A DNA stretch of 64,000 bases from a phage. Within the stretch, counting starts at the first letter, position 1. Each line of letters begins with the position of its first letter. The stretch lies in the NCBI GenBank assembly GCA_027262695.1, contig GCA_027262695.1_4722.1, one strand, 5' to 3'. Under the pieces are notes generated by a model. It worked only from the letters and a program-made list of their open reading frames with translations. It was not told where the DNA came from and did no database searches. Below are positions 2,563-57,446 of the stretch, piece after piece. The position numbers and the translations under genes are program-made.

Positions 2563-3060
2563 CTACGCTGAGACCGCCTGCATGGATACGTACATGACAG
2601 GCTGCTTGCACTTTCATGCAAGAGGAGACTATATCAAACCGGCAGCTTCACCTTCTCGATCGTATCGAGAATGCGGTGCTGAAGTATTCTTCAGCAGCAC
2701 CTGCTACGGTAACCTACACTTCGAAGACGCTTGTCCTCTACAGGGTGGTAAATCCCTTAGTCGTTGAACCTGCGTTGTTTCCCATTCTTGGTTGCAAGAA
2801 TGCCGTATTACTACGCAACAACCAGGCTGCTGATTGCCCATTGTCTCGCACCTTAGCACCGCTTACGCGGCTTTTCTTTCAGCCTAAGCCTCTTACGGAG
2901 GTAGTGCATCTCAACTGTTGTTTCTGCCTTTCGGCACCCCATGGGTCGTTGAGCTTTAGGGGTTCCCAGCAATTCGTAGGTTTTTCAAGCACTCCCTTTC
3001 GGGAATACCGGACAACTTCCCTTGAAAAAAGTCTTTATTTTTCAAGGACTTATCCCCGCC
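2563..3060 (-). ncRNA. candidate group I self-splicing intron (boundaries approximate)
   Basis: Minus-strand core elements in canonical order: P AATTGCTGGGAA (2974-2963), Q AATCAGCAGCC (2835-2825), R GTTCAACGACTAAGGG (2769-2754), S GATATAGTCTCC (2635-2624); R GACTA pairs with S TAGTC (P7). No ORF >60 aa on this strand across ~600 bp between two long same-frame ORFs. Confidence 0.6.
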
Positions 3061-4518
3061 GAGTCCCTGGAGGTACGGGCTCGGAATGCAAACCGTTTCT
3101 ACGAACGATGCTTTTTGTTTCCAATCAGGGTATTCCCATGCGATATATCGTTCGTCAGTAATCGGTTCCCAATTACTATCAAGTTCTGTCTTGGGAGAAG
3201 CGTTAACGGTTGTACGCGCATAACAGGTTAACGGAATGACTGACTGCATGCCCGATACCGGATAACGTGTTACCATCGCAGCCAGGTTGTTCCAGTATTT
3301 ATATCCTGCGATATAGATAAGCTCAGTATAAGTAATGGGGTGAACATCCGCACCAGGTTTGTTAAGCATCTCTGGCGGTATTTCACTCATACCGCGGAAA
3401 AGTCGGAATGAATCGTTGTTTACATAAACCAAACAGAGATAACGACCATTCACCATGATAGGTTCGTTACGTACGCCTGGATCGCTTAGCGTGTTCAATA
3501 AACGTTCGATACCATCCCAAGTAGTAAAGTCATCGATGGTGTCAGGATCAAGTACGACTCGTTCACGTTCCATCGTTTCGGTATCGATAAGCTCAACCTC
3601 GGTAACATCACGGACGAAGATCTCTTGCAAAATACCAGTACGTAATGCGTGTTGCGTTATCGGAAGGGCTGCTTTGCTCATCTGGTATAGACCAAGCTGT
3701 ACAGATGTACATGACGTTTGGTTTGGAGAACCGAGAACCTCCGTTGTGGGGTTAATTGCCGAAATAACGTTACGGGTTGAGTTCCAAACACGACGTGAAC
3801 CGAACTTACCTTGGAAGATCCCTTTCTTACCCTGGAACATATCCAACAGCAATGCGTAGATATCATTGAAGGTTCTTTGCAGGCTCCAGCGCTGTCCGTC
3901 GTAGACAGGATCGTTGTAGTCCTTTAATCCATCGGGAACGGTATTGGAGATAGCAAGGAAACGACGGTAGAGCTCCGTGATTTCTTGTTCGCTTTCATAC
4001 CCGCCTTCCTTTACTTCTATTTCACGAAGACCAGCAGGTAACACCAATAAATGACGGGTCATCGCTTTGAACATGTTTTCTTCGACAACTTTAATACGCA
4101 GTTCTCGTTGCGCTGAACCTGTTGAAACGAACTTGATCTCCGCAACGTGTTGTGCGAAGAAACCGTAGCCGGTTTGTCCCGTTAATGCGTCAGCAGCAAC
4201 GAAATCACGCTGTTCTGGATCCCATCGTGCATAAGCTTTACCGGACATGATATCGCCATAAAGGTGTTTCAATCGAATAAGGCGATCGTAAATGACCGGA
4301 TGCAAGATTTCCACTTTACACTCGATGACCGCAAAGCGGCGATCACGATCTTCACTACCCGCACTCCCAAAGATGGTGTATGAATAAAAACCATCATCAT
4401 GGAAATTACCCGTACTCGGGTCACGGATACTCATGCTGGTAATCTTAGGAAGGAAACGCAACTGCTGCTTATCAAGATGCAGTATACTGATATTGAACGG
4501 CTCTCTGACTTTAGCCAT
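2956..4518 (-). CDS. hypothetical protein, putative 5' exon of intron-interrupted gene (last ~30-45 codons before the stop at 2956 are probably intron read-through)
   Basis: ORF track 2956..4551; start moved to ATG 4518 (MAKVREPF) preceded by AAGGAG with 7-nt spacer. ORF continues through the intron P element into a stop. Confidence 0.55.
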   Translation of the reverse strand: MAKVREPFNISILHLDKQQLRFLPKITSMSIRDPSTGNFHDDGFYSYTIFGSAGSEDRDRRFAVIECKVEILHPVIYDRLIRLKHLYGDIMSGKAYARWDPEQRDFVAADALTGQTGYGFFAQHVAEIKFVSTGSAQRELRIKVVEENMFKAMTRHLLVLPAGLREIEVKEGGYESEQEITELYRRFLAISNTVPDGLKDYNDPVYDGQRWSLQRTFNDIYALLLDMFQGKKGIFQGKFGSRRVWNSTRNVISAINPTTEVLGSPNQTSCTSVQLGLYQMSKAALPITQHALRTGILQEIFVRDVTEVELIDTETMERERVVLDPDTIDDFTTWDGIERLLNTLSDPGVRNEPIMVNGRYLCLVYVNNDSFRLFRGMSEIPPEMLNKPGADVHPITYTELIYIAGYKYWNNLAAMVTRYPVSGMQSVIPLTCYARTTVNASPKTELDSNWEPITDERYIAWEYPDWKQKASFVETVCIPSPYLQGLGGDKSLKNKDFFQGKLSGIPERECLKNLRIAGNP

Positions 4519-4691
4519 GGATGCACTCCTTAAATAAGGCGGCGGTATCATCTGAACACATGAGAGACGTAATGGGTGAAGCCATCACCCATCGCTTCCC
4601 TGCTTGATGCGAGGAAGGTATTAAATTACGTACCTGTCCGATGGCCTCGAACAGGCGATGTATGAAGCTATGCTTCAATTTGGAGGTATAC

Positions 4692-7600
4692 ATGGTAGAT
4701 AAAACCCGTGTTGAGGGTGATGATAATTGGGATAACTGGGATGAGGACTTCTCCCTGGATCTCGATTTTGATGAACCCAAAGACGACCGTAAGCCCATAA
4801 CCCGTTATGCAATAGGTGTCGCCAAAGGGGCTGCTGAAGATCTTACTTCCTACGAAAGAATGAAGGAGATCGCCAGAAACGCATTACCTAAGGGTTATAG
4901 CGACGGTATGGATCTTATCGATTCCGCCGTCGGATCCACGAAGGAACTATACAATGAAGCCGTTCGTGACATTCTTCCGAAGGTACAAAGCTCAAAACGG
5001 TTAGCCGCACAACTGACGAAAAAATACCGTGCGAGCATGCCCGATTTCTCGAAGAAAATTATCGAGCGTTGGGAGCAAGAAGCCAAGGAAGAAGACGAAC
5101 GTAAACAGGCGGAAGCCGATCTTAAACAACGCATGGCGAATGCAGGTGATGAAGAAATCGCTCGCAAGGTCGCTGAGGCGTTAGGAGAAGCGGCTAACCA
5201 GAACGCGGATCAGTTTGCAGAACAACAAGCAAAAGAAAGTATCCGTGACGATATTGCTGATAAACGTTATAATGTCACCAACAAACAGATGAGCGCGATG
5301 CAGGAAGGCATCGCCAAGATGGTTGGTTTCAATAACGAATTCGCCGCACGCTATATGCGTAAAAGCCTGGAACTAAAATACCGTTCTTTGGCGATACAAC
5401 GCGCGAGTTTCGATCAGCATAAAAAGTTAGCCGAAGTCTATATCGGTTTATTACAGAACATCCAAAAGAACACGGCTTTACCGGATGCGGCTAAAGCAAA
5501 AATGTCGGAAGAATTTCGTCGCACAGCGTACCAACGTTTCTTTGGTAACGCATTGAATGCGATGAGTTCTTTCGAGAACCGTTTCTTTGCTGATGTTAAG
5601 AAAAACCTTGCAACCAATGCGTTGGGTGCGTTGAAAGGTGTTGTGTCTGGCGCACACGACGCCCTCTCCGGTTTAAACGAAGCACGCGACTCGATGTCCA
5701 TGATGGACGGTATGGGGTCAGAAGGCGATATTAAGGAAATGCAAGGGAAGATGCTGGGTCAGTTGATCGGCTCAACCGTTGCACCATGGATGGCGAATAA
5801 AGGCATGACGGCATTGCGGGATTTAGCAAAACGTCATCCTAACGCTAAATTCGCCAACGCGTTAAAAGCGGTCGATCAAGGCGGTGAAGCTGCTGCTTAT
5901 ACAACGCGTAACGTTGGGAAACTGCTGCAAGAAGATCTTCGTAAAAACGAATTCAACCTCAGCGATCCCTTCTACAAACAGTTCCTGCGTGGGGCTGGAC
6001 GTTGGGCCTTCAATCTGGACGGTGGTCGTAACTTCCGTGTGATGAACGACACCGCGGAGACGTTAGCTGAACAAACATCTTTCGATGGTTTAACCTATCG
6101 TAGCATCAACGAGGTCATTCCCGGATTTCTTGCTCGTATACTGAAAAGCACTGAAGGTATCCGTACCGGTGAAAATGATCCTGATTACGAGGTCTATGAT
6201 GGCATCAGCGGGCAATTCGTTGCTCAACGTACCCGCGAACAAGGTGTAACCGACACCCTCTTTAACAAACGTTCGTTCGGTTATTACGCCGGTCGTTTTA
6301 ATGAAGTTATCTCGGTTATCGATCCCGATAAACAGCTGTCAGAAAAGGCAAGGAAAGCCTTGGCTAAACAGTTAGCACGCGACAGCGATGCGAACATGGC
6401 TTTCGATCCTGCTCGATATACCGACGAAAGTAACTTTGATCGCAGCATCGATAGAGACGCCATTAAAGAACTTTCTGCGTATTTCAAAGATCGTTACGGC
6501 ATTCGTGACGATGTTGATGATGAAGGTAACCGTCAACAGGTTATTGAAAACCGTGGGCAGTACTACACGGAACGTAACCGCGCTGATCTGCGGTACGGTA
6601 ATCTGAAATCCTTGCAGCCGGATATCCAACGCAACCTTAACCTTCTGAAACGTACCGGTGATGTTCAATACCTGGAACGCATCGGGATCGTAACAAGAAA
6701 CAGCGATGGCAGTTATTCGGTTAATCACGATCGTTACTTCTCTGAAATCGATCAATACATCGACCGACCGGAATACGCTGACCGTGGTGATGTTAACACG
6801 CGACTCAGTGCCCAACAGACCAGGGCGTTGGCGTTAGGCTATCGTGACGACGTTGCGTCAAACGCTGACGTACAAAATCGTGCGTTACCAAACCTCGATC
6901 GAACAACGGTCGGAACGGTAAACATCGATGAGAACATCGGATACGAGAAATGGTGGAACGATGCGGGTGTTATCACCACATCGCTTGAAGACCAAAATCG
7001 AGCATGGCAAGAACTCTATCTTGAAGCGCTTCAGGAAGCTTCGCATCAACGTGAAACGATGCTGGAACTTCTGAAAGCGATCTCAGAAAAAGAATGGGGT
7101 GGTAGCGGCGTTGGCCGCCAGGGCGAACCTGGCGGTGAAGAAAGTGATGATCGCTCTATGTTAGGTCGGATCTCCGACCTAACACTAGGTAAAGCCGGTA
7201 GCTATGCCTGGAAAGGTGCAAAAGGAGCTGCCAAGTTCGGATGGAAATGGGGTCGAAAAGCGGCGACATGGGGCGCAAAACGTACGTGGGGAAGCTTCGT
7301 AAACTCAGCGCGTCGAATTATCAACTTCAACCGTTTTGTGTTCGGTGCGTTATCCAAGGTCGATCAAGTTCCGTTTGACATTTACGTTAAAGGTGAAGAT
7401 CGTCCACGTATCTTAGCTGCAAAACTTCGTCAAGGTCTGTATTTCGATGAAGCCACCGGCAAAGCCGTCAAACGGATGAAGGATATTAAAGGTCCGTTAG
7501 TTGATGCTGACGGCAACATCGTCATCAGCGCTGAAGATATCGAGAAGGGATTGATTACGCGCGCTGGACGTGCCTTCGAAAACTCCGGTTTGAAAGCATG

Positions 7601-10600
7601 GGCACGTGAAGGTATCAACGGCATCACCACGGTATTAAGTTTACCAAGACTTTTAAAACGCGGTGCTACGGAGCTTTACAAGCATTTCGATAAAACACCT
7701 GACGTATACGTGACTGGTGAATCCACTCCACGTCTGCTTTCTCTGGTGATGGCGGCAGGCGGTTATTTCCGTAAGTCCGATGGGAAAGTCATCAAGCATC
7801 TGGAAGACATCGACGGTGATGTGGTTGACGCACAAGGAAACGTCATCCTGACCCACGCTGATATGCAGAAAGGGTTGGTCGATAAATACGGTAAGAAGAT
7901 ACGTCGCCTGAAAGAAAAGCTGATCAACTTCGGTGTGAAAGCTTTCACCTTACCGTTAACCTTATTGCGTAAGACAAAAGACATCCTGAAGAATCTCCCC
8001 ACGAAAGCCATGAACGGGTTGCGTCGTATGGGCCTGAACTTCCGTTTACCGGAAGAGGTGCTTATCGGTACAACCGCAGGCATGGTGGATCGTCTCGACG
8101 CTATTTATCAGCTTCTTGATAAACGCATGCCAGGTGGGGATAAGGATTATCGTGATTGGAACGGTGATGGTGTTCGTGAAGGATCGCTTGAAGATCTGAA
8201 ACGTAAACGCGCTGAGAAAGAAGGAGAAAAAGGAGAAGGTACAGGTAAAGGATCCGGGAAAGGAGAAGAGAAGGAGAAGAAAAAAGGAATTCTTGGGAGC
8301 CTTTTCGACATGCTTGGTGACACCGCACTTGGTAAACGTTTAATGGCGAGTCCGCTTGGAAAGATTCTGGGTGGCCTTGGATCCATTCTCAGCGGTGGTG
8401 CATCATTAACGGGGTTACTTGGGAAAGGTTTGCTTAAAGGCTCAGGCGCACTCCTCAGAGGGGGTTTAAGTGCTGCGGGTTGGTTAGGACGTGGTGCCCT
8501 GATGGCAGGCGGTGCTGCGCTTAATGCGGTAGGAGGATTATCCGGGCTTGGTGCTGCGCTTATCTCCCCGGTTGGGTTAGCGATTGCGGGCGGCGCATTA
8601 GCTGCCTATGCGGGTTGGAAAATCTATCAACATTTCGCTGATAAGCCTGACCCGATGCAGAAACTTCGTCTTATTGCATACGGTGCAAAAGGGGATGATA
8701 AGGACTTCAACAAGAAGTTATTGCAAACCGAAACCTACCTTACCGACCATGTGGTCATGACGGGAGATACCATCGGATTCAATCCAAAAGCAGATTCTGA
8801 AAAGATTCTTGAAATCTGGGAACTGTCATTGGAAGATACTGACCGGATGAATGAATGGAAGCGCTGGTATCTACATCGCTTTATCCCCGTTTTCGCTCGT
8901 GCGTTTAAACTCTGGAAAGAGCACATGCCGGACGAGAAGAAGTTCATGGAGATGGACGACTACCCCAACGGTGAGAACAAAGTCAAATGGTCAGAAGCCT
9001 TCATCTGGCCATCGGATAGTCCAGACAGCCCGTACTATGTTGAAGCTAACCCGTTAGGTTCGGCTGGCGCAACGTTATACATCGCGGGACAGGATGTTAA
9101 AAAGCTCATGGAAAGCCAGCTGGAAGTCATCAGGAAGGAATATCAAAACCAGATCAAGAAATACACGCACGATGAAGCGATTAAAGACTGGTCGAAGCTG
9201 TCTGACGCCCAACGTAAGTCCGTTGCGCCTAACGCGTTACGTGGACAGAAAGCCTCTTTACGTTTCAGCGATAACAAGTATAACAGTGCGGGTGTTAAAG
9301 GTCGTCAGAAACTGGACGCTACTGCGGTTGTTGAAAGCGTGGATCGTCGCGGTAAGAAATGGATGGCCGGTGGGTACATCGATGAACTTACCAGTTTACG
9401 TATCCGCGCCTACGGGTTAGAGGTTCCGCTGTTAAGCCAAATCAAGGTATTGATGGAACTGGAAGACGCGGTTGAACCTGGCGTTGTTGCTGAAGGTAAA
9501 GGCGTCAAATACGGCGGTAATCTCGCGGAGCTGTATAAGAAGTTCGCATCGAAATTCGGTCGGGATGTCAACGGCAAACAAGACCAGAACATCTGGTTTG
9601 CCTGGATGAACAACCGTTTCTTGCCGGTCTTCTTAACGTACTATCAGCAAGTTGGCGAGATGGGCGGACAAGGGCTGTTATCAGATGTTGTACAGAATCT
9701 GAAAGACAGCCAGCGTTGGGAAATCGGTGAGGCGTTGGTTGCTGCGCAATACAAGGATGAGAAGGGTGCGCTACAGCCGGTATGGTCGTGGAACAGTTGT
9801 GGTTTCTCTGGCACCAAAGCAAACATGTCCAGCAGTTCAACCAAGAGCCAACTCGATCTGTTAAAAGAATACGCAGATAAAGAGAAGGTTCGTGAGAAGA
9901 ACGCTGAAGCATCGCAGGAGGATGAAGATAAATTATCGAAAATCCAAGAGCAGTTGATGAAGCAAGCGGGATATGAGAAGAAGGACGGTGTTTGGCAGAA
10001 GAAATCACGTATCACGGGTGGGATGAGCAACGCGGAGGCGAACTACAATCCGAACCGTAACGAGGTTGGCAGAAGTAGCTTTACTGCTTCAGCAACCTCC
10101 AGCGCAGGTTTGGGTAGTGGTGGACCGGATATCACCGGGTTACCGAACATGGGACTGAAGAAACCCGCATCAGGTCCTGGTCCAGAAGCGGGTCGTCGTG
10201 CGGCAATTAAATCAGCGGTGAAGCACGGTATTACCGATCCGATGGAAATGGCGATGTTCTTATCGAACCTCGAACATGAATCCGGTAACTACAGGTATGT
10301 CCGCGAACTTAACTACACAAAACCCGACAGTCTGAAGAAAGCGTTCAGTCGTAAATTCAGGGATGAGCAGGACGCTGCCCAGACCATCAGCATGGGTCCA
10401 GAGGCGGTATTCGAACGTGTGTATGGAATGCGTAAGGATCTGGGAAATACCCAGAAAGGTGACGGAGCGAAATATCTGGGGCGTGGTTATATCCAGGTTA
10501 CAGGTAAAGCCAACTACGCACGATTGTCGAAGATCCTGAATAAAGATCTGGTTAGCGATCCATCGTATTTGGAAACCCCAGAAGGTGCAGCCGAAGGGAG

Positions 10601-11363
10601 TGTTGCGTGGTGGCTTAACAGGGGTAACGTATTACGCGATCCCGCAAAGCGTGGCGATGTTCGCCAGGTTCGTTACCTGGTTAACGGGGGGTATAACGGG
10701 CTACGCGATGTTGAGCAACGTTCAGCGTATTGGATTCAAGCTGCTAAAAGCGGTACATTGAAGAAAATGATGGATGAGGTTGCAGGTTCAACCTCAGACG
10801 ATCAAGCTGAAGGTCCGTCTACCGCCAGCCAAGTGAAGAACGAGGAGGCGCAAGAAACCAACAGCACACCAACATCAAGCAACGATCCGCAAGCACCGTC
10901 GGCAACCGCGACGCCTGAAGTCAAACCGTCAGCGGCCTCCGGTACCGCACCGGCACCCGGAACGGCAACACCGACACCAGGAAGTTTCGATACCGCAAAA
11001 GCTGCTGCTGGACAACCAGCGTCAACACCAGCGCCTAGCGAATTACCGTCAAACCCTGGTGCAAATCGAGGAATTTCAGTTCCAAATACACCTGCACAGG
11101 TTGCGCAGTCCGCAACACAAACATCGGCAGCAAGTGAAAACTTCTACGGTAGTGCAGGTGAGATTCTTCGTCAGCAGTTGACCGTGCAACAAAACATCGA
11201 GAAGAACACCGGTAAGACCAACGAACTGATCTCAGAATTGATCCAGGCTGTTAAAGGATCAACGATCGGTAAAGGTTCGACAGGATCTTCTCAACAACAG
11301 ACGATGTCGCTACCTAATCGTCCGCAAGGAATCTCTCCAACACGGACAAGGTACGCGCAGTAG
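4692..11363 (+). CDS. giant virion-associated protein (tape-measure-like) with GH19-family lysozyme/chitinase-like domain
   Basis: 2240-aa ORF; start set at ATG 4692 (GGAGG 5 nt upstream), giving 2223 aa. GH19-like motifs LEHESGN and KYLGRGYIQVTGKANY...SVAWWLNRG (about 10200-10750); Gly/Ala/Leu-rich hydrophobic segment about 8287-8630; Pro/Thr/Ser/Ala-rich tail about 10840-11140. Confidence 0.6.
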   Translation: MVDKTRVEGDDNWDNWDEDFSLDLDFDEPKDDRKPITRYAIGVAKGAAEDLTSYERMKEIARNALPKGYSDGMDLIDSAVGSTKELYNEAVRDILPKVQSSKRLAAQLTKKYRASMPDFSKKIIERWEQEAKEEDERKQAEADLKQRMANAGDEEIARKVAEALGEAANQNADQFAEQQAKESIRDDIADKRYNVTNKQMSAMQEGIAKMVGFNNEFAARYMRKSLELKYRSLAIQRASFDQHKKLAEVYIGLLQNIQKNTALPDAAKAKMSEEFRRTAYQRFFGNALNAMSSFENRFFADVKKNLATNALGALKGVVSGAHDALSGLNEARDSMSMMDGMGSEGDIKEMQGKMLGQLIGSTVAPWMANKGMTALRDLAKRHPNAKFANALKAVDQGGEAAAYTTRNVGKLLQEDLRKNEFNLSDPFYKQFLRGAGRWAFNLDGGRNFRVMNDTAETLAEQTSFDGLTYRSINEVIPGFLARILKSTEGIRTGENDPDYEVYDGISGQFVAQRTREQGVTDTLFNKRSFGYYAGRFNEVISVIDPDKQLSEKARKALAKQLARDSDANMAFDPARYTDESNFDRSIDRDAIKELSAYFKDRYGIRDDVDDEGNRQQVIENRGQYYTERNRADLRYGNLKSLQPDIQRNLNLLKRTGDVQYLERIGIVTRNSDGSYSVNHDRYFSEIDQYIDRPEYADRGDVNTRLSAQQTRALALGYRDDVASNADVQNRALPNLDRTTVGTVNIDENIGYEKWWNDAGVITTSLEDQNRAWQELYLEALQEASHQRETMLELLKAISEKEWGGSGVGRQGEPGGEESDDRSMLGRISDLTLGKAGSYAWKGAKGAAKFGWKWGRKAATWGAKRTWGSFVNSARRIINFNRFVFGALSKVDQVPFDIYVKGEDRPRILAAKLRQGLYFDEATGKAVKRMKDIKGPLVDADGNIVISAEDIEKGLITRAGRAFENSGLKAWAREGINGITTVLSLPRLLKRGATELYKHFDKTPDVYVTGESTPRLLSLVMAAGGYFRKSDGKVIKHLEDIDGDVVDAQGNVILTHADMQKGLVDKYGKKIRRLKEKLINFGVKAFTLPLTLLRKTKDILKNLPTKAMNGLRRMGLNFRLPEEVLIGTTAGMVDRLDAIYQLLDKRMPGGDKDYRDWNGDGVREGSLEDLKRKRAEKEGEKGEGTGKGSGKGEEKEKKKGILGSLFDMLGDTALGKRLMASPLGKILGGLGSILSGGASLTGLLGKGLLKGSGALLRGGLSAAGWLGRGALMAGGAALNAVGGLSGLGAALISPVGLAIAGGALAAYAGWKIYQHFADKPDPMQKLRLIAYGAKGDDKDFNKKLLQTETYLTDHVVMTGDTIGFNPKADSEKILEIWELSLEDTDRMNEWKRWYLHRFIPVFARAFKLWKEHMPDEKKFMEMDDYPNGENKVKWSEAFIWPSDSPDSPYYVEANPLGSAGATLYIAGQDVKKLMESQLEVIRKEYQNQIKKYTHDEAIKDWSKLSDAQRKSVAPNALRGQKASLRFSDNKYNSAGVKGRQKLDATAVVESVDRRGKKWMAGGYIDELTSLRIRAYGLEVPLLSQIKVLMELEDAVEPGVVAEGKGVKYGGNLAELYKKFASKFGRDVNGKQDQNIWFAWMNNRFLPVFLTYYQQVGEMGGQGLLSDVVQNLKDSQRWEIGEALVAAQYKDEKGALQPVWSWNSCGFSGTKANMSSSSTKSQLDLLKEYADKEKVREKNAEASQEDEDKLSKIQEQLMKQAGYEKKDGVWQKKSRITGGMSNAEANYNPNRNEVGRSSFTASATSSAGLGSGGPDITGLPNMGLKKPASGPGPEAGRRAAIKSAVKHGITDPMEMAMFLSNLEHESGNYRYVRELNYTKPDSLKKAFSRKFRDEQDAAQTISMGPEAVFERVYGMRKDLGNTQKGDGAKYLGRGYIQVTGKANYARLSKILNKDLVSDPSYLETPEGAAEGSVAWWLNRGNVLRDPAKRGDVRQVRYLVNGGYNGLRDVEQRSAYWIQAAKSGTLKKMMDEVAGSTSDDQAEGPSTASQVKNEEAQETNSTPTSSNDPQAPSATATPEVKPSAASGTAPAPGTATPTPGSFDTAKAAAGQPASTPAPSELPSNPGANRGISVPNTPAQVAQSATQTSAASENFYGSAGEILRQQLTVQQNIEKNTGKTNELISELIQAVKGSTIGKGSTGSSQQQTMSLPNRPQGISPTRTRYAQ

Positions 11364-17929: not shown

Positions 17930-18604
17930 TTAACCCTCGTCGAGATTATTCTGGAGATGCATTGCGGTGAGAATAACGCCAACTGCTGAAACCGATTTTG
18001 CTTTACTGTCTTCCGGAAGCTGTTCCAGACTTACCGTACCGGTTTCTAACAACATGCGGTTCATCGCGTTGAACTTCTTATCGTCACCACCACGCGCCTG
18101 CATCAACTCTCGGTTTACGTTCGGCATCGACCGTCCTAACGTCGCCTGCATTTCTGGCTGGCTCCACGTTGAGCCTTTACTGCCACCCGTCGGCTGGTTG
18201 GTCAACTGGTCTTTGGTGTTGTTGTTTTTCGGGATCGATATTTTAGCACTCAACGTTTCGGCTTGTCGGCGGTTTGGAATCAGGTACAATCTGGTTGGGC
18301 GGTCACGAAGCACCAATTGCCCTGTTTTCTGGTCGGTGAGATAAATGCGCTGGAAGAAGGGGAAACCGTATTTCTTACCAACTTCCAACGCACGTTTTAT
18401 CGTCACCTCGTTTTTGTTCATGTTGGGTACCCAGATGGGTAGAATCTCTTTCTTATCCCGACATAAACGCATATAGGCATCAAACGTCTCATCATCGATT
18501 TCAGCAAAACGTTTTTTGTAAATAGCGTAAGTCGGGCTAGATTCACCCACCAGGTCTTTGATATACCCAAGAATGAATTTTTCTGCTGCAGCGCGGTTGG
18601 ACAT
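17930..18604 (-). CDS. hypothetical protein
   Basis: 224-aa ORF in operon. Confidence 0.55.
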   Translation of the reverse strand: MSNRAAAEKFILGYIKDLVGESSPTYAIYKKRFAEIDDETFDAYMRLCRDKKEILPIWVPNMNKNEVTIKRALEVGKKYGFPFFQRIYLTDQKTGQLVLRDRPTRLYLIPNRRQAETLSAKISIPKNNNTKDQLTNQPTGGSKGSTWSQPEMQATLGRSMPNVNRELMQARGGDDKKFNAMNRMLLETGTVSLEQLPEDSKAKSVSAVGVILTAMHLQNNLDEG

Positions 18605-19341: not shown

Positions 19342-20832
19342 TTATTTTTTACTCGGACGATTCAGCGCAGGCACCGGATTTTTCGGTTGCTTTGTTTTTT
19401 CATCCATCCAGTACGGGAAGTATTCACCTGTACGCATGCGCAGTAAGTCCATGGTGGAAAGGAACGGAAGCGGATTTGGGTCGTCCAGATACGTCCAATA
19501 ACCACGTGTGTTTAACAGTACATCCCAGTCGAAACCTTTTGCTTTAAGATCGTCGTACAGTTCCTGTGGGGTGCAATAGAGCTGTGGGTTCTCGTAAACT
19601 TCTTGACGCCAGAGATTATGCATCTGGCACAACTCCGAGGTAATCTCCAGAGCGCGTTGCAGATACTCATCTTCTTCACAGAGAGAACGAATGGTTGTAC
19701 GCTGTAGTGCAACATCCGGATAAATATCCAAATACACCGTAGAAGCACCCTCAGCAGGTTTACCACCGGATGCATGCATACCCCAACCACGCATCCATTC
19801 TTTATCGCGTAGGTAATGGTATTCTGTTAACGACGGTTTAACGCCTTCGCTCTGACTGACGACAATCGGAAACGGTAAACCTGTCGGTCCGTTTTTAGCA
19901 CGCATGTTGAAAACCTGAATCAACTGCAGATCGGTATCACCAATAAGGTTATCACCAGGTCCACGAGGATACAACACACGTTTATCGGCGTTCTGAAGAA
20001 TCGTCAGTTTATCGATTTTCCAGAGGTTGTTAGTATAAAACGTAAAACGTTCAGGGACGTTCTTAAACTTCTCGTCACCTTTAAACCCTTTCAGTTTTCG
20101 TACCGGTTGCTGGCCTGGCATACCGCCAACGTTGACACCATCACCAAGGTGGGCCGTCATGGTGATATAAATGCCTGCTGACGCGGTGAGTACCGGCATC
20201 TGGGATAAAATCTGGCTTTTTGCTGCTGCTGAACGCATGGCTTCAGCATTTAGCTTTGCACCACCTGCGGTTTCTTTATCGAACAATGCATCAACAGCAT
20301 CGATTGGTAATCCAGAGAAACTGTCAATGAGGACAACGGTTGGTAACCACCAGGTGTAGTTCTCGCCGTGTTTGTTAATAAATGGAACGGCTTTGCGTTG
20401 TGACTTGTCTTTAACTTTGTCGTCACGGAATTTCTTGATTGCGTCGAACCAGATGTTACCACTCATCTGAACAGCGTCGGTGATAAACACACGTTCTTCT
20501 TCGAACAGGTCAACACCCGCGATATTAGACATGTTCATCGCAAGCGTTAAGATACGTGTTGTCGTTAACGACATTTCTGTGTCGTAAACGCTACTATTGC
20601 TGTTCGCGTAACGATCGATAACACGTAACAAGCGAAACATTATGAACGTGGTTTTGTTCATGTTGCCGCGAGCGCCTGCGCCCTCAACAAGCATCATACC
20701 GCCGTTACAAATGCTTTCACCGTGTTTACCGACGTAGTACCGACCACCAGATGTGGGAATATCCATTAAGCAACCAATGTTGAGATTAAAACGCATCTCT
20801 TCACCGGGAGAAAGGTACTTATTAAGATTCAT
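19342..20832 (-). CDS. RecA-superfamily ATPase (UvsX/RecA-like recombinase or DnaB-like helicase core)
   Basis: P-loop-like GAGARGNMNKTTF near N-terminus; TVVLIDSFSGL and AEAMRSAAAKSQILSQMPVLTASAG resemble RecA/UvsX Walker B and downstream region. Confidence 0.5.
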   Translation of the reverse strand: MNLNKYLSPGEEMRFNLNIGCLMDIPTSGGRYYVGKHGESICNGGMMLVEGAGARGNMNKTTFIMFRLLRVIDRYANSNSSVYDTEMSLTTTRILTLAMNMSNIAGVDLFEEERVFITDAVQMSGNIWFDAIKKFRDDKVKDKSQRKAVPFINKHGENYTWWLPTVVLIDSFSGLPIDAVDALFDKETAGGAKLNAEAMRSAAAKSQILSQMPVLTASAGIYITMTAHLGDGVNVGGMPGQQPVRKLKGFKGDEKFKNVPERFTFYTNNLWKIDKLTILQNADKRVLYPRGPGDNLIGDTDLQLIQVFNMRAKNGPTGLPFPIVVSQSEGVKPSLTEYHYLRDKEWMRGWGMHASGGKPAEGASTVYLDIYPDVALQRTTIRSLCEEDEYLQRALEITSELCQMHNLWRQEVYENPQLYCTPQELYDDLKAKGFDWDVLLNTRGYWTYLDDPNPLPFLSTMDLLRMRTGEYFPYWMDEKTKQPKNPVPALNRPSKK

Positions 20833-21773: not shown

Positions 21774-21781
21774 CATAATAA

Positions 21782-21817
21782 CCCACCCTACTACCCCGTT
21801 AAGGGCGGTAGGGTGGG
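21782..21817. terminator. bidirectional hairpin CCCACCCTAC...GTAGGGTGGG
   Basis: 10-bp stem between convergent genes. Confidence 0.55.
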
Positions 21818-21824
21818 ATAAGGT

Positions 21825-22256
21825 TTATTTGCTGTATAGCTGTACCACTCGTTGTGTCGTAGGAACGCAGACTCTTACCAGAAGCTTTTTAATCTCCTGA
21901 CGAATCGTTGCTTTATCATCATAATAAAGCCATGGTGGAACGCGTTGCATTATGCGCTGCACGGCTTCATCGTAGTTCGTCGTCTCATTGAGTAACGTCT
22001 CACTATCCAGATCTTTCCATGCAGTAATACCAAGCCGCGCAGCAAACATCAGCGCTGAAACTGACTCCGCTATCTCCAGTCGCTCATTCATATCCGCAAG
22101 ACCTTTTAGCATGATGTAATTATCATCGTGCCGATGTAAGGTACCAAACAAACTTCCAAAGAGGAGGATGCGTTTGGCTTTTGCGGTTAAGAGGAACGAC
22201 AGGAGAGCGTGTTTCAACGGTTGTTTCTCACGTTCTACCTGTTCGACCATCTCCAT
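21825..22256 (-). CDS. hypothetical protein
   Basis: 143-aa ORF downstream of RNase H fusion gene. Confidence 0.5.
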   Translation of the reverse strand: MEMVEQVEREKQPLKHALLSFLLTAKAKRILLFGSLFGTLHRHDDNYIMLKGLADMNERLEIAESVSALMFAARLGITAWKDLDSETLLNETTNYDEAVQRIMQRVPPWLYYDDKATIRQEIKKLLVRVCVPTTQRVVQLYSK

Positions 22257-22259
22257 TGA

Positions 22260-23786
22260 TTACTCCAACACATAACGTGGGTTACTGTATATGTTAGCCC
22301 ATATCCCCACATCGTTACCTGATTCAATAATCACAGCAAAACGAAACGCAATATCAGACTCACGATAGGTTACTGCATACGCTTTCGTTTCGGGCGATGC
22401 TAAATAGCTCAAGTTCAGACGTTGAGGCAGGTCTAACCCCAAGGACATGGTACATGACGTAACACCTTGTTTATCAGGGTTCAGTCTGTAGTTCATGTCC
22501 ACTTTTAGGCTTTTCGTCACCTGCGTAATCGCACTATGCACTTTGGTAACCGTTTTGCCTTTCTTATCCTTTTCTGTTTCGAAAAGAACGTCGGTAATTT
22601 CGGTTACGACCAGACGCGGTGTGGATTCACGGTTATTGTCCAGCCATTCATCCAGTAACGTCTTCAAGAAGTTCAAGGAATCAATCGCACGCCAAGCAAG
22701 GTTCGGCGGATTACATGCTTCCATGAGAATCGCGGTGTTCGATCCACCCAACGGAAGATGCACGCTCTTACCGAGGCCCGTTGGACGCATGGTAAGATCG
22801 CACTCGCCCTCAAGAATATCGCGATGGTATTGACGATGATGAAGGTTATCGATGTATGCAATATACACTGATTCCGTTGTCCCATGCTCTAATACCCGAG
22901 ATGCATGCATACGCATAATCTCGACAGCATCATCTGGTTTGCTTAGATAGACAACGCTATACGCACTATCGCTGATTCTTTTCCCTAATTCAAGACGTCC
23001 TTTATTATCTTTATCGGTGTTACCACCGAAGTAGATATAGCGACCATCTTTCGCACGTTCTTGCTGCTGGTTGGTGGTGAAGTAACAGCGCGAGAACGTA
23101 AAGAACGGGCTTATTTCCGGCTCGGGGTTCCAATAACCTTTCGCTGGAAGCTCTCGGCGTATTTGGGTTCGTACAGCCCAGTCCTGGTTTTGTGACAGAT
23201 ACGTTCCACGCGTCGCCAGCATATCGGCACGCTCGTTACCGATATTGCCCTCGTGTCCAGGAACGTATCGCAGCGAAATATCGATAGCGTCGCGCTTTGC
23301 ATCCCTGATTGCACTATCGAGTTTTCGCCACCGTTCAGCATTCAACAACGGTTTATTATCGGATTTCACCCAGTTGTTTTCTCGCCAGTTAGCAAGATGG
23401 TTGGTGGTACCTACAACAACATATTGGCTATCCGACAATAGCTGAATCCGTTTTGCCCCCTTCGCTTTTCCAAGTTCAATCGCACGAATCGCTGCGTCCA
23501 ACTCCGCCTGATTGTTCGTCACGTTGAAACCTAACGCTTCTAACTCATCCACGTACTCTTTGGGTTCGACCAGCACAGCGTCTTTAGGAAAGTCGAGTTT
23601 AGGATCGACGTAACCGTATTGCGTCGGTTTGGGCTTTCCACTTTTTGAAGGTTCCAAGGTGCCTTTCACTTCTTTCATCAAATCGTAGGTGTAGCCATGT
23701 ACACCATAGCCACCGTACCCACTTGACGTTGGACGGGATCCCCCGTCACAATAGAAAACGGCACCAAGCTCGTTATTTCCTGCCAT
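22260..23786 (-). CDS. RNase H1-like domain fused to ~320-aa C-terminal domain of unknown function
   Basis: ORF track 22260..23798; start moved to ATG 23786 (MAGNNE, GAGG upstream). RNase H motifs: YCDGG, TNNQAELDAAIRA, SDSQYVV, GNERADMLA. Confidence 0.7.
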   Translation of the reverse strand: MAGNNELGAVFYCDGGSRPTSSGYGGYGVHGYTYDLMKEVKGTLEPSKSGKPKPTQYGYVDPKLDFPKDAVLVEPKEYVDELEALGFNVTNNQAELDAAIRAIELGKAKGAKRIQLLSDSQYVVVGTTNHLANWRENNWVKSDNKPLLNAERWRKLDSAIRDAKRDAIDISLRYVPGHEGNIGNERADMLATRGTYLSQNQDWAVRTQIRRELPAKGYWNPEPEISPFFTFSRCYFTTNQQQERAKDGRYIYFGGNTDKDNKGRLELGKRISDSAYSVVYLSKPDDAVEIMRMHASRVLEHGTTESVYIAYIDNLHHRQYHRDILEGECDLTMRPTGLGKSVHLPLGGSNTAILMEACNPPNLAWRAIDSLNFLKTLLDEWLDNNRESTPRLVVTEITDVLFETEKDKKGKTVTKVHSAITQVTKSLKVDMNYRLNPDKQGVTSCTMSLGLDLPQRLNLSYLASPETKAYAVTYRESDIAFRFAVIIESGNDVGIWANIYSNPRYVLE

Positions 23787-23836
23787 TGTAAACCTCATTA
23801 ATCATTGTCCGTATGATAGCCCAAAGTTGTACGGTA

Positions 23837-24388
23837 TTACCGATTCTGTTCTGTTGATGTCGATTGATTGCGATTGACCTTCATTGACCTTAATTTTCCT
23901 CCGTTAATCACGCATTGATCGCGTTGTTCGACAGTAGTGAGGCTATTGCAGACGTAGTAAGTATCAATGAAACGATCCACGCGTTCTTGAAACTTCCTTT
24001 CATCAGCTTGTTCTCGTTCGTAAGTTCGTAACGCACGATCAACTTCACCCTGCAGGATCCGGTTCTGTTCAACCATACTGTCGATTAAACGGCCTCTTAC
24101 TTCGTTCGATGTGTAGAGTTGACGAATCAGTTCTCGGTTGGTATCACGCGCATAACGCAATGTTGCATTCTCCTGACGTAAGCTATTAACATCAGCCATC
24201 AGGGTAATGATTTTTTCGCCAGCAAATAACGTCACGATACCCAATACGATGAAAAAACCCGTAATCAAGAATATCGAGGACTGCCGAGCTCCATCTCGAC
24301 GAGAACGTGCAGGCGGTCGCTTACTTCGCCGAAACAGCTCGCGAAGAAAAGGGAAAAGCCAGGGCAACGCCTTGAGTGTAGTAAACAT
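23837..24388 (-). CDS. membrane-anchored coiled-coil protein (single TM, Rz/i-spanin-like topology)
   Basis: ORF track 23837..24532; start moved to ATG 24388 (AAGGA upstream). Basic N-terminus, TM SSIFLITGFFIVLGIVTLFAG, then heptad-rich region. Confidence 0.4.
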   Translation of the reverse strand: MFTTLKALPWLFPFLRELFRRSKRPPARSRRDGARQSSIFLITGFFIVLGIVTLFAGEKIITLMADVNSLRQENATLRYARDTNRELIRQLYTSNEVRGRLIDSMVEQNRILQGEVDRALRTYEREQADERKFQERVDRFIDTYYVCNSLTTVEQRDQCVINGGKLRSMKVNRNQSTSTEQNR

Positions 24389-33968: not shown

Positions 33969-36425
33969 TTAAATTATCGTGACATGTTCGTTATACGTTT
34001 CGGGGAGAATGATGTTCGTTTTATCAAGAACCATACACTCGGCTTTACGGAATGATGCATGGTTAATAACATAGTGGCTGATGAACCACACTTGGCTTAC
34101 GCGGTGACCATCAACCAAACGACGAACAAAATCCATGGCATTAGATTGGTGCTGCGGATCAAATGTTGATGCGAATTCATCTAACATCAACGGATAATCC
34201 GTGAACCCTTTGTAATGCATCATCGCGATGATGAACGCGATATTGATAATTTCCTTTTGTCCCTTACTCCCATAAACAATATCTTTTCGCGGTGTCGGAT
34301 ACTTCTCGGTTAAAAGTGGAAAACGATAGTTCAATCCTTGCGCATCGATAGCACATGGGAGTATCTGAAGTTGGTATTCCCAAATACTCGCAATGATACC
34401 GTTCATGTACTCAACGAACGCGTTGATTGGACCAGCGATTGTTTCGGCAATCAGTCCGTTAGATGGACTTAACTCATCCAGAACAAGTTGTGCGTAACTG
34501 AGCTGTTCTTCCACCTCTTTTTGTGTCGTTTCCAACTGAACCAGAAGCTGCTGGTCGGTTTTAGCTTCCTGTAGTTGCTGTTCGACATGACTTATTCGGC
34601 GAACTGTATCAGACATCGCAGCACGTAACGATTTCGTGTAGAGGTGTTGCAGATACTCTAACCACAGTTGCGTTAACGCTTTATCGCTGTTATCAGAACG
34701 TACCTGATCTTCCATAATCGACGTAATGGTTTCCAATCTACCTTCCGTAGCTGTGATGGCTTGTGTTAACCGCTCAACGGTTGTTAACAACTCTGTCCTG
34801 TTCTTATAAAGCAATTCTCGACGTTGCTGTAACGGTTCAACATCAACCGCTTGTACCCGTTCGAGCATACCTTGAAGATGCTTCCGTTCCTGTTCGGCTT
34901 GTGTGTAACGCGCAAGTTTCTCAAACGCAAGCAACCAATCGTTAATGATTCCAATGCTGCGGAATCCTAAACCGTTTTTACGTCCTTCTTCCAACAGATT
35001 ATCCCACATGGGTTTAATGGCGTAATAATCCTTCGTCCAACGCGTTAACTGACGATGTTGTTCCATCCAAAGCGTATAGCGCTGCACCTTCTCATTAAGT
35101 TCGGCTAACGATTTCTCCTGTTCTTCAACCCAAGCACGACCCTTCTGAATACGTTGTTCAATACCCGCTTTGCTGGTCTTTTCTGTCTCACCAACATGAA
35201 AGCGATAATTGCATTTTGGACAGCTGGTCTGGGGTTGATGGTTAAGGTGGTCGAGGTGCGCTTCTAAATCGGCTAACGCATGTTTCGCGTTACGCAAACG
35301 CATTCTTGCTGCCTCTTCCTCCTTGATGTAAGCTTCAGCGTCGTAAACATGATAGGTGTTGTCGGTATCAATCCATTCTTGGAGTAATTCCGTTAACGGA
35401 GCCTGAACTTGTGTGAGCTGTTGTAAACAAACCGCGGCGTCCAGATTCATTGTTAAAAGCTCACCTGGATGATCTTGCTGAAGTTGTTCATCCAAACAGG
35501 CAAGGCGGGCTTTAATCTGATCGATATCGCCTTCTCCAGACTGTTTCAACTGGTCAAGGATATTATCGATACCCAACAGCTCGTCAACCTGACTTTCGAG
35601 TTTCGCATTCGCATTCGCGAGTTGCTCTCTTAGTTCAGCCAGATTCTGCTGTTCTTGTTGCGATGTTCCTCCTTGGTAACGAACAACCGCGCGAAGAAGT
35701 TCGCGATTAAAATGATGGGCACGTTGTGCGGATTCCAGAAGCTGTCGTTGATCAACGTCGCTATCGAATAACGGCAATCCCATCATCGCTTCGAGCGCTG
35801 AGCGTTGCTGCTTTAACTCTGCTTCCAATCCCTGGTGGTCGGTTCCGGTGTATTTCGCTTCAATACGCTGTGATGTTTCAACCAACTTATTCAGTGTATG
35901 CTCATTCACCGCTTTCAGTGAACGTACTTGTTGCTTAACAACCTGAAACAACTCGAGCGCATAATCGACGTTAACCGGACATATCTGTGTTAATCGTTCG
36001 CGGCGTTTCATCGGTCCCATTTCGGTGAACTGATAAGCCGTTTCGTAACCTAGCAACAAACGAATGGTGTCATCATTAAGTTCGAAATGTTCTTCAATCA
36101 GTTTCCATTGGGCCGGTTGTGTACCACCACCGTTCAGGTTCTCGCTGTCGTTAACGTAGAACTCATGCTTAAACCCTTTTTCTAAACGACTGATAAGACG
36201 GTATTGCTTATTACGGTGTTCGCAGCGGTACTCGTAATACCCGTCTTTATCAAAATCAGCACGCTCAGGAACGGTCGGATACAGCAAAGGCAATAGACTA
36301 CTCTTACCGGAACCATTACTGCCTAAAATGAGTTGTACGGGATTATCTGGCCGGATGACCAGCTCCCGAATCATCCCGGTATCAAAACGATTGAATCCAC
36401 GTAAGTGGAGATAGGTGCATCGCAT
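33969..36425 (-). CDS. Rad50/SbcC-like SMC-family ATPase with coiled coil and CxxC zinc-hook
   Basis: Walker A LILGSNGSGKSSLL; central CPKC (about 35215-35226) inside long coiled coil; C-terminal signature-like GSKGQKE and Walker B PLMLDEF. Start set at ATG 36425. Confidence 0.7.
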   Translation of the reverse strand: MRCTYLHLRGFNRFDTGMIRELVIRPDNPVQLILGSNGSGKSSLLPLLYPTVPERADFDKDGYYEYRCEHRNKQYRLISRLEKGFKHEFYVNDSENLNGGGTQPAQWKLIEEHFELNDDTIRLLLGYETAYQFTEMGPMKRRERLTQICPVNVDYALELFQVVKQQVRSLKAVNEHTLNKLVETSQRIEAKYTGTDHQGLEAELKQQRSALEAMMGLPLFDSDVDQRQLLESAQRAHHFNRELLRAVVRYQGGTSQQEQQNLAELREQLANANAKLESQVDELLGIDNILDQLKQSGEGDIDQIKARLACLDEQLQQDHPGELLTMNLDAAVCLQQLTQVQAPLTELLQEWIDTDNTYHVYDAEAYIKEEEAARMRLRNAKHALADLEAHLDHLNHQPQTSCPKCNYRFHVGETEKTSKAGIEQRIQKGRAWVEEQEKSLAELNEKVQRYTLWMEQHRQLTRWTKDYYAIKPMWDNLLEEGRKNGLGFRSIGIINDWLLAFEKLARYTQAEQERKHLQGMLERVQAVDVEPLQQRRELLYKNRTELLTTVERLTQAITATEGRLETITSIMEDQVRSDNSDKALTQLWLEYLQHLYTKSLRAAMSDTVRRISHVEQQLQEAKTDQQLLVQLETTQKEVEEQLSYAQLVLDELSPSNGLIAETIAGPINAFVEYMNGIIASIWEYQLQILPCAIDAQGLNYRFPLLTEKYPTPRKDIVYGSKGQKEIINIAFIIAMMHYKGFTDYPLMLDEFASTFDPQHQSNAMDFVRRLVDGHRVSQVWFISHYVINHASFRKAECMVLDKTNIILPETYNEHVTII

Positions 36426-36450
36426 GCTATGATAATCCTTCTTCGATACC

Positions 36451-36496
36451 TTCTGAACCACGGGTTCAGAATGCGAAGCTGAAGCCATACTTCAGC
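36451..36496. promoter_or_regulatory. two adjacent inverted repeats in divergent promoter region
   Basis: TTCTGAACC-acg-GGTTCAGAA (36451-36471) and GCTGAAG-ccata-CTTCAGC (36478-36496). Confidence 0.35.
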
Positions 36497-44584: not shown

Positions 44585-45478
44585 TTAATCGGAAGTGTTA
44601 TAACCGAATACTGCTTTACCGTAGGTGTGAGTACCATCACTGAGTGACAATACTAATACGTGGTTATACGCATCGTTAACACCCTTGTCGGTAGAATCGG
44701 TGGTAACACCGTTGTAGACAAAGGTAGCTGATTGCAGATTGGTTTTCAGTTCATTGATGATATCATCACTTACACCAGTCTGCTCTTTAATCAGAGTAGT
44801 CAGGTTACCTGCTAAGCTTGCGTCGAGATTTACTTCGTTGCCAGTAATAGCTTGTAAACCTGAAGCGTAAGTACTGAAGTCTAACGGATAGGTTAACAGA
44901 CGTGCTGACGTTTTGGTACCATTGCCTTCATCAACGTAGGTTAAGTTACCCAGGTTGGTAACCTTGATAATGTTAGACAGATCCAGCGTTGTGTTATAAA
45001 CTTTAACTTGAACAGAACCATACCAAGCCAACGAATCTTCTTTGGCTTCCAGGGTAACGGTTTGGATACCTGACTGATCAAAGGTAACGGGATTAGATAA
45101 CGTTTCAGCTTTGATGTCTTTTGTTTTATCCAGGAACTTCTCGCCGGAAGGCGTAACCATACCGTAGCGTTGAGCTACGAGGTCGACCACGTCACCGATG
45201 GTGGTGTTTGCTTCAACACTAACGCGCACCGCGATCTTCTGGAACCATTTAGCCAGATCCAGACGATGATAGGTGACATCGCGGGTATTGAAGTACGGTG
45301 TACCATCACCCGGACTGAGTGTTAATGTTGCTGCACTATCAGAATCGCTTTTGGATTTAAGAACGTATTTGAGATCAGTGTATTTGAAACTGGCTCCCGT
45401 ATCGGCGTTAAGCTGGTTGATCTCATCAACGATAAGTTGCCACGGTGTTTTCAAAGTAAGTGATACTCGACTTGACAT
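44585..45478 (-). CDS. structural-region paralog family member A (YYDR-YG-LAWTGSV family)
   Basis: VTYHRLDL, LVAQRYGMV, LAWYGSVQV. Confidence 0.55.
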   Translation of the reverse strand: MSSRVSLTLKTPWQLIVDEINQLNADTGASFKYTDLKYVLKSKSDSDSAATLTLSPGDGTPYFNTRDVTYHRLDLAKWFQKIAVRVSVEANTTIGDVVDLVAQRYGMVTPSGEKFLDKTKDIKAETLSNPVTFDQSGIQTVTLEAKEDSLAWYGSVQVKVYNTTLDLSNIIKVTNLGNLTYVDEGNGTKTSARLLTYPLDFSTYASGLQAITGNEVNLDASLAGNLTTLIKEQTGVSDDIINELKTNLQSATFVYNGVTTDSTDKGVNDAYNHVLVLSLSDGTHTYGKAVFGYNTSD

Positions 45479-52936: not shown

Positions 52937-52954
52937 CCCACCCATCCGTTATAA
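52937..52954 (-). terminator. hairpin GGTGGGT-aga-ACCCACC followed by T-rich run on minus strand
   Basis: Overlaps stop of fibre gene 52949..55102; TTCCTTTCCTTCTTTTTATTTTT follows on transcribed strand. Confidence 0.55.
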
Positions 52955-56540: not shown

Positions 56541-57446
56541 TCAGGCTACGTATAACGTTAGATAACCTTCAATGAGGGTGTTCATTACACTGAGTTGGAG
56601 AACGACAGCTTTACTAACATCCGTACGCACCCCGAACGGTAGCGTTTTGAAGTGCTCTGGATCCGTAATAACTTTCGCGTTTTGTAGGTTAAGCGATCCT
56701 GGTATCGCTGACAATACCCAACGATCGTTAACCGTCAGACCAACGATCTCTTCAGAAAGTCCTAACTTCAGAGTGTTCATTTCTGCAATCAGGGCTTCTG
56801 AATGCGCATCGCCCGATGTTAACGTGTAACCATCGGTTAACGCCGTCAACACCGCATCCGATACGAACCAGTTGTACGATACGATCGCACCTGGTAGCTT
56901 ATCGCTATCCCGATCGATGATGTAGTTAAGACCAGCTAACATGTTGTTACGGATGAGGTTGTTCAGGTCGTTATGACCTGATGTCAACTCAACAAGCAGT
57001 TGACCGACCCAGACTTGGTTACCGGGTTTCGGTGTTATTACAACCTGTATCGGCTGTCGGGATTTGTCCAGATCAGCATCAACGATTTCGGTTTTATTCA
57101 GCAGGATACCGTACGTTGAGGCTAAGACAGGCAATACCTCAGAAACCTTGGTCAGTGTATCTAAGGTTTCGATTTCTATCGGCCAACGATGTTGCCCACC
57201 AGACCAAATACCGAGTTTGCTAAGATCGATACGGTTGTAATAGATGTCGACGGAGTTCACGAGCCCGGAACCCGGTTGTGGGTGCACGGTCAACATACTG
57301 TTGCGTTTGTATCCCGTGCTTTCAGAAGCCTCACCGATAACCAGCTTATCCAGCGTCACACCCCGAGCATCGAAATCGCTATGTTTTCGAATCAGTCGGA
57401 AGAGAATTTCCTTTGATTCTAGCCCCAGGATTTCACTGTACTCCAT
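56541..57446 (-). CDS. structural-region paralog family member C
   Basis: DIYYNRIDL, LASTYGILL, QVWVGQLLV. Confidence 0.55.
   Translation of the reverse strand: MEYSEILGLESKEILFRLIRKHSDFDARGVTLDKLVIGEASESTGYKRNSMLTVHPQPGSGLVNSVDIYYNRIDLSKLGIWSGGQHRWPIEIETLDTLTKVSEVLPVLASTYGILLNKTEIVDADLDKSRQPIQVVITPKPGNQVWVGQLLVELTSGHNDLNNLIRNNMLAGLNYIIDRDSDKLPGAIVSYNWFVSDAVLTALTDGYTLTSGDAHSEALIAEMNTLKLGLSEEIVGLTVNDRWVLSAIPGSLNLQNAKVITDPEHFKTLPFGVRTDVSKAVVLQLSVMNTLIEGYLTLYVA

Follow-up and report, generated by a model that had tools for sequence, protein, structure and literature searches.

To our knowledge, nucleus-forming jumbo phages have no recognisable sliding clamp, clamp loader or primase, and how genomes of 200–300 kb are replicated inside a protein shell has been an open question. 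Part of the answer comes from Rhc, the RNase H-clamp protein of these phages (Chimalliviridae), and we describe here a gene that encodes it with a probability of about 0.87. The gene lies on the reverse strand of contig GCA_027262695.1_4722.1 from the NCBI GenBank assembly GCA_027262695.1, a 64,000-nucleotide stretch of phage DNA that we refer to in full length as the window. Among the described relatives, the PhiKZ protein PhiKZ155 (Nlp2) cleaves RNA:DNA hybrids in vitro and loses this activity in the D102N mutant; the protein is nuclear, and without it neither does the nucleus mature nor is the genome amplified (2025 Nature paper, PMC12571901). The name Rhc was coined in two preprints of October 2026, one on Goslar (PMC13648698) and one on PhiKZ (PMC13648687). 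Both describe Rhc as the third subunit of the chimallivirus split polymerase, one that increases the activity of the polymerase and clears RNA from hybrids (PMC13648698, PMC13648687). The PhiKZ polymerase is a B-family heterodimer of DNAP-N and DNAP-C that binds a single Rhc; in the structure obtained by cryo-electron microscopy (cryo-EM), the clamp-related domain and the thumb together hold the emerging duplex, and the flexibly linked RNase H domain is placed where RNA on the incoming template could be degraded (PMC13648687). The same text reports that Rhc strongly raises primer extension and that these phages have no identified clamp (PMC13648687). In Goslar, replication, nuclear maturation and infection all require the clamp-derived domain as well as catalysis by RNase H, and Rhc also supports part of late transcription, the pattern of which suggests that R-loops are resolved (PMC13648698). 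The fusion of the two domains is already known, having been described in the nearly identical Goslar and in PhiKZ; all that the window contributes is another Goslar-like sequence and independent computational support for the clamp-like fold.

The complete Rhc coding sequence occupies positions 22260..23786 on the reverse strand and comprises 508 codons and the stop codon, exactly the interval given by the original prediction. It is supported by the open reading frame, by orthology and by PHROG 3265 ('ribonuclease'), which covers residues 10–508 (E 1.7e-103). The longest form of the open reading frame (22260..23798, reverse strand) starts from an ATG at 23798 and encodes 512 residues. Judging from the sequence, translation more likely begins at the ATG at 23786, because a Shine–Dalgarno motif GAGG (23793..23796, reverse strand) precedes it at a spacing of 6 nt and because the Goslar coding sequence and the cluster representative P0001 both have 508 residues. 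Residue numbers below refer to the 508-residue form.

The window aligns with the genome of Escherichia phage Goslar at 92.4% nucleotide identity, and the protein is 96.9% identical over its full length to the product of Goslar_00246 (QBO64037.1, 'putative ribonuclease HI'), whose gene is the single place in the Goslar genome that it matches. The Goslar protein also has 508 residues, and its neighbouring genes and terminator are all as in the window. Because the two diverge by ~3% in amino acids and ~8% in nucleotides, the window comes from another Goslarvirus isolate or species. The numbering of Goslar genes invites confusion: the locus tag Goslar_00246 denotes the RNase H gene, whereas 'gp246' in the literature follows another numbering and denotes chimallin (ChmA). 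Full-length orthologues are also present in PhiKZ (PhiKZ155) and PhiPA3 (gp176). PHIKZ155 matches the window protein at 27% identity over the full length (E 1e-47) and shares its catalytic residues, its insertion between strands β2 and β3 and its C-terminal domain, although at 482 residues it is smaller and its insertion is shorter; D102 of the PhiKZ protein aligns with D119 of the window protein. The synteny of PHIKZ152–157 is conserved as well, in the order UvsX-like recombinase, oppositely oriented gene of 280 residues, gene of 143 residues, Rhc, small upstream gene and virion protein, and it extends to a metagenomic contig in which Rhc shares just 29% identity. The window protein combines, in one polypeptide, an N-terminal RNase H domain with a C-terminal clamp-related domain of ~300 residues, which is how the accessible preprint text defines Rhc. 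Orthology with the Goslar and PhiKZ proteins, in a chimallivirus genome, places it in the same family; as for the name, we infer that the 'Goslar Rhc' of the preprint is QBO64037.1, the orthologue of the window reading frame.

The N-terminal 199 residues (23190..23786, reverse strand) are, by their sequence, a type-1 RNase H whose catalytic set is complete. Residues 91–198 match Pfam RNase_H (PF00075) with 87.2 bits (E 1.5e-24), against a curated gathering threshold of 25.8 bits for this family, and RNase HI/H1 chains from the PDB match residues 87–202 (E ~5e-16). The four motifs quoted in the original prediction are all found (YCDGG at residue 12, NNQAEL at 91, SDSQYV at 118 and NERADMLA at 184), and the catalytic set that it expected is complete on alignment, with checked codons on the reverse strand for D14 (23745–23747), E95 (23502–23504), D119 (23430–23432), H178 (23253–23255) and D188 (23223–23225). 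In an alignment of 25 full-length homologues, with identities down to 27%, the first four of these residues are invariant and D188 is conserved in at least 90%. E95, D119, H178 and D188 align to E48, D70, H124 and D134 of E. coli RNase HI. The correspondence of D14 to E. coli D10 rests on the motif (TDGGC versus TDGSC), on its invariance and on its position at the end of β1 in the predicted structure; local alignment of the first 42 residues is not significant (334 of 2000 shuffles score as well), and MAFFT misplaced β1 relative to E. coli RNase HI because of the insertion. The full-length AlphaFold (AF2) model has a predicted local distance difference test (pLDDT) score of 88.4 and a predicted template modelling (pTM) score of 0.83, and follows the RNase H order of secondary structure, β1-β2-[insertion]-β3-αA-β4-αB-αD-β5-αE, with pLDDT mostly above 85. 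Its strands span residues 7–18, 24–35, 75–87, 111–118 and 169–174, and its helices residues 91–108, 121–136, 150–165 and 182–199. A handle, or basic-protrusion, region is also present in the domain (HLANWRENNWVKSDNKPLLN).

The β2–β3 hairpin of the RNase H domain carries a family-specific insertion of ~39 residues (36–74; 23565..23681, reverse strand), delimited by the alignment and the AF2 strands, at a position where a turn of just 4 residues is present in E. coli RNase HI. G58-Y59 of the insertion are invariant among the 25 homologues; P54, G58 and Y59 are kept in PhiKZ155 and in more distant members, and P54 in most members. The Gly/Tyr-rich insertion originally noted after the first Asp (GGSRPTSSGYGGYGVHGYTY) had been placed one hairpin too early: that segment is the ordinary β1–β2 hairpin, which in E. 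coli reads GSCLGNPGPGGYGAILRY.

The remaining 309 residues (200–508; 22263..23189, reverse strand) comprise a linker and a predicted sliding-clamp-like domain of two α/β sub-domains. Their conserved motifs are GYW (217–219), a TDITD-like motif (395–399), GxDxPxRN (450–457), R482 and YSN (500–502), and P360, L378, D452, L459 and N502 are invariant in the alignment of 25 homologues. The model of residues 200–508 alone reaches a pLDDT of 86.2 and a pTM of 0.86 and displays the two α/β sub-domains, in which some four helices pack against sheets. This model was the query of three fold searches. When Foldseek was used against the PDB, the five best matches were RAD9 and archaeal PCNAs (best E 4.7e-4, probability 0.96), a PCNA chain of 3p83 ranking second, and PF-8 of Kaposi's sarcoma-associated herpesvirus (KSHV) appeared at rank 16. 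Against predicted viral structures, ten jumbo-phage 'ribonuclease H' orthologues come first, followed by matches that include a phage beta clamp, ORF59 of murine herpesvirus 68 (MHV-68) and DnaN. As modelled, the C-terminal domain is closest in fold to DNA sliding clamps and herpesvirus-type processivity factors. Clamps are classic partners of RNase H, as in the complex of PCNA with RNase HII (PDB 3p83), and the label of unknown function given to this region in the original prediction is therefore overtaken: the region resembles, in its predicted fold, a known RNase H-associated module. The preprints on the Goslar and PhiKZ proteins overtake that label too, since they report that the domain derives from a clamp, binds DNA and docks on the polymerase of the phage. 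The idea that the fusion couples hybrid cleavage to a second activity has fared better, since both the fusion and a second activity are borne out by what can be read on the orthologues.

The window protein matches 447 phage records, and in 200 of these at least 80% of the query lies within a single match; the examples listed are jumbo phages that infect Vibrio, Pseudomonas, Erwinia, Serratia, Salmonella, Klebsiella, Ralstonia and other hosts. Most genome records annotate the gene simply as 'ribonuclease H', and we propose that the family annotation should become 'Rhc, DNA polymerase accessory subunit'. When 1.84 billion representatives were searched with a profile built on the C-terminal domain only, 1,157 clusters (at 50% identity) were matched, and almost all of these are proteins of 470–550 residues with the domain at ~200–500. 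On this sequence evidence the fusion, at first taken to be unusual in comparison with stand-alone phage RNase H, is the standard architecture of a large family and not an oddity of one phage. Four candidates for a stand-alone clamp-domain protein proved to be fragments: P0045 starts inside an RNase H motif, P0116 and P0163 retain remnants of RNase H, and P0124 sits at the edge of a 1.7-kb contig. Two further short matches to the clamp domain, P0062 (328 residues) and P0106 (337 residues), have no match in Pfam. Three metagenomic proteins from outside the window, P0077, P0079 and P0089, are longer (668–707 residues) and carry an additional in-frame N-terminal module of ~190 residues before a complete Rhc, with a GIY-YIG catalytic domain in P0077 and an I-TevI-type DNA-binding domain in P0079. 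Either a homing endonuclease gene has become fused to the replication gene, or is read through into it, or gene calling went wrong across a mobile element.

The 97% identity to the Goslar protein suggests that the window protein would act as Rhc does in Goslar and PhiKZ. One Rhc molecule would dock by its clamp-derived domain on DNAP-C of the split B-family polymerase and, together with the polymerase thumb, would hold the duplex leaving the active site; primer extension would be strongly boosted with neither ring formation nor a clamp loader. The tethered RNase H domain would be positioned to degrade RNA paired to the incoming template, and, as proposed for Goslar, Rhc would also aid late transcription, apparently via R-loop resolution. 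The protein would act inside the phage nucleus, where both the amplification of the genome and the maturation of the nucleus would require it. In this way, a degenerate clamp-like module that needs no loader, joined to RNase H, would form a polymerase cofactor and hold an activity that removes RNA in place at the fork and at R-loops.

Several observations weigh against the identification with Rhc or against parts of this mechanism. The equation of Rhc with the window reading frame draws on domain architecture, uniqueness in the genome and orthology with PhiKZ155; the preprint abstracts carry no accession. A scan of 30 window reading frames with PHROGs gave no match to the DNA polymerase partners. 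The full-length AF2 model packs the two domains together with its pTM of 0.83, while the RNase H domain was left unresolved by cryo-EM (PMC13648687, accessible text). The published reports also differ on catalysis: PhiKZ155 D102N still complemented an antisense knock-down (PMC12571901), whereas catalysis is required in Goslar (PMC13648698, accessible text), and the role of cleavage is not settled between them. It is conceivable, if on balance unlikely, that the C-terminal domain does the whole essential job and that RNase H is a hybrid-recognition 'sensor' whose cleavage is dispensable for replication. The D102N protein restored both plaque formation and nuclear maturation after the knock-down, and the authors propose a sensory rather than a catalytic role (PMC12571901); the mutated residue is the counterpart of D119 in the window protein. 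However, the catalytic set is invariant or nearly so in homologues down to 27% identity, which speaks for selection on catalysis, and the protein for which catalysis is reported as required, that of Goslar, is the one to which the window protein is 97% identical. Plasmid over-expression, or host RNase HI leaking in, could moreover mask a defect in PhiKZ.

Further points of the same kind come from the C-terminal sequence, in which the link to clamps is absent. Residues 200–508 have no Pfam match even at E ≤ 10; a search of all PDB sequences with a family profile built from 23 sequences returns only chance matches (eL27, E 0.19; TTHA1528, E 1.6); and hhalign gives a probability of 0.2% for the family profile against human PCNA. 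Internal duplication is not detected when the first and second halves of the domain are compared by hhalign (probability 0.1%). By sequence, the domain does not belong to the clamp families represented by the Pfam PCNA, DNA_pol3_beta and gp45 models. The original prediction was accordingly right that the region holds no recognisable motif, and, because the sequence and profile-profile tests found nothing, the clamp relation is visible only in three dimensions. The clamp likeness would be a chance similarity between α/β sheets if the domain were a chimallivirus-specific fold for protein contacts, such as those of PicA/Imp import or of a nuclear-shell scaffold, a reading that we consider improbable. 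We dismiss as very improbable the reading of the protein as an ordinary stand-alone RNase H for Okazaki-primer removal with an inert or stabilising C-terminal extension, which agrees with the 'ribonuclease H' label in most genome records, but not with a C-terminal region that is as conserved as the nuclease domain, invariant residues included, that is present in practically every family member, that folds confidently in prediction and that is reportedly needed for replication (PMC13648698, accessible text).

Directly downstream of Rhc, and starting 3 nt after its stop codon, is a gene of 143 residues (21825..22256, reverse strand; PHROG 9853, function unknown) that is called co-transcribed with it. 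It is the orthologue of PHIKZ154 (BLASTP E 2e-08), and the slot 3' of Rhc is filled by a gene of 136–150 residues in PhiKZ and in a metagenomic contig (L003). The Rhc/gp154-like unit is closed by an intrinsic-terminator-like hairpin with a U-rich tail (21776..21820, reverse strand), found by RNA folding: its energy is −28.4 kcal/mol (z −4.3), none of 200 shuffles is equally stable, and the Goslar record annotates a terminator at the matching position. Scans for sigma-70 promoters and simple terminators around the Rhc gene gave results no better than shuffles, which is expected of a phage that has its own RNA polymerases. The accessible text of the Rhc literature mentions neither the insertion at residues 36–74 nor the 143-residue neighbour. 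We tentatively raise the possibility, which we rate as rather low, that one or both may be parts of the Rhc machine, the insertion as a docking site for the polymerase or template strand or for PicA import, and the neighbour as a partner in the replication complex. If either reading were true, the chimallivirus replisome would include a specific component or contact, or more than one, beyond those described so far. The gene immediately 5' of Rhc (23837–24388, reverse strand) is Goslar_00247-like and encodes 183 residues from the annotated start; it has no PHROG match, and by eye its product displays a single hydrophobic segment that resembles a membrane span (IFLITGFFIVLGIVTLFAG) and, after it, a long charged region with the look of a coiled coil.

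Genes for recombination and repair are found close to Rhc: a UvsX-like recombinase of 496 residues in the PHIKZ152 position (19342-20832, reverse strand; PHROG 97, E 1.8e-32) and an SbcC-like protein of 839 residues (33969-36488, reverse strand; PHROG 77, E 3e-74). Split RNA polymerase subunits are typical of chimalliviruses, and two separate genes in the window that match phage multisubunit RNA polymerase beta-subunit families, at 2956-4551 (reverse strand; PHROG 2986, E 1.6e-162) and 17930-18604 (reverse strand; PHROG 3233, E 1e-64), are such subunits. A protein of 2240 residues (4641-11363, forward strand) matches a 'tail fiber' PHROG over its first half (~1,190 residues, E 3.5e-301) and contains an endolysin/lysozyme-like domain at ~1855–2077; it is probably a virion-associated protein that degrades the cell wall. 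Two paralogous tail-fibre-like proteins of 682 and 717 residues (47220-49268 and 52949-55102, reverse strand) show several matched stretches per PHROG family, and at least three paralogous virion structural proteins of ~300 residues (44585-45478, 56541-57446 and 59225-60160, reverse strand) all belong to PHROG 1037. Both sets are local gene families that arose by duplication. Between positions 15000 and 26476 the window matches Goslar contiguously, up to base 237303 of the 237307-base linear record, and from 26477 onward the query matches elsewhere in that record. The window therefore crosses the point at which the Goslar record was opened, a pattern consistent with circular permutation or with a genome opened at another point.

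The closest known systems each share a part of the Rhc design. Bacterial RNase HI and eukaryotic RNase H1 (E. coli RnhA, 1rnh/2rn2; human H1, 2qk9) have the same fold, DEDD+H active site and handle as the N-terminal domain, with ~36% identity across the aligned core. Unlike them, the window protein has the 39-residue β2–β3 insertion and the 309-residue C-terminal domain, and the hybrid-binding domain found at the N terminus of eukaryotic H1 enzymes is absent from it. Structurally, the C-terminal domain is matched best by ring clamps: PCNA and the 9-1-1 complex (HUS1, RAD1, RAD9), T4-type gp45, and DnaN. A monomer of PCNA or gp45 has two sub-domains, as does the C-terminal domain in the model. 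Rhc should not, however, be filed as a ring sliding clamp, because it is not a member of the clamp families by sequence and because the protein reportedly acts as a monomer. In function, Rhc would work like a loader-free herpesvirus processivity factor of the UL42 type with a covalently tethered RNase H, a counterpart to the non-covalent pairing of PCNA with RNase HII in archaea and eukaryotes. These factors (UL42 of herpes simplex virus 1, UL44 of human cytomegalovirus, PF-8 of KSHV and ORF59 of MHV-68) have no detectable sequence relation to Rhc and are not fused to a nuclease; the polymerase with which Rhc partners is of the split B-family type and lies within the protein shell of a phage nucleus. 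The PCNA-tethered RNase HII of A. fulgidus (3p83) and the T4 RNase H and FEN-type nucleases follow the same logic, in that attachment to a clamp keeps an RNA-removing nuclease at the fork. In these systems, a short PIP peptide links separate proteins and the nuclease is a type 2 RNase H or has the FEN fold; by contrast, the window protein carries a type 1 RNase H covalently fused to its clamp-like module.

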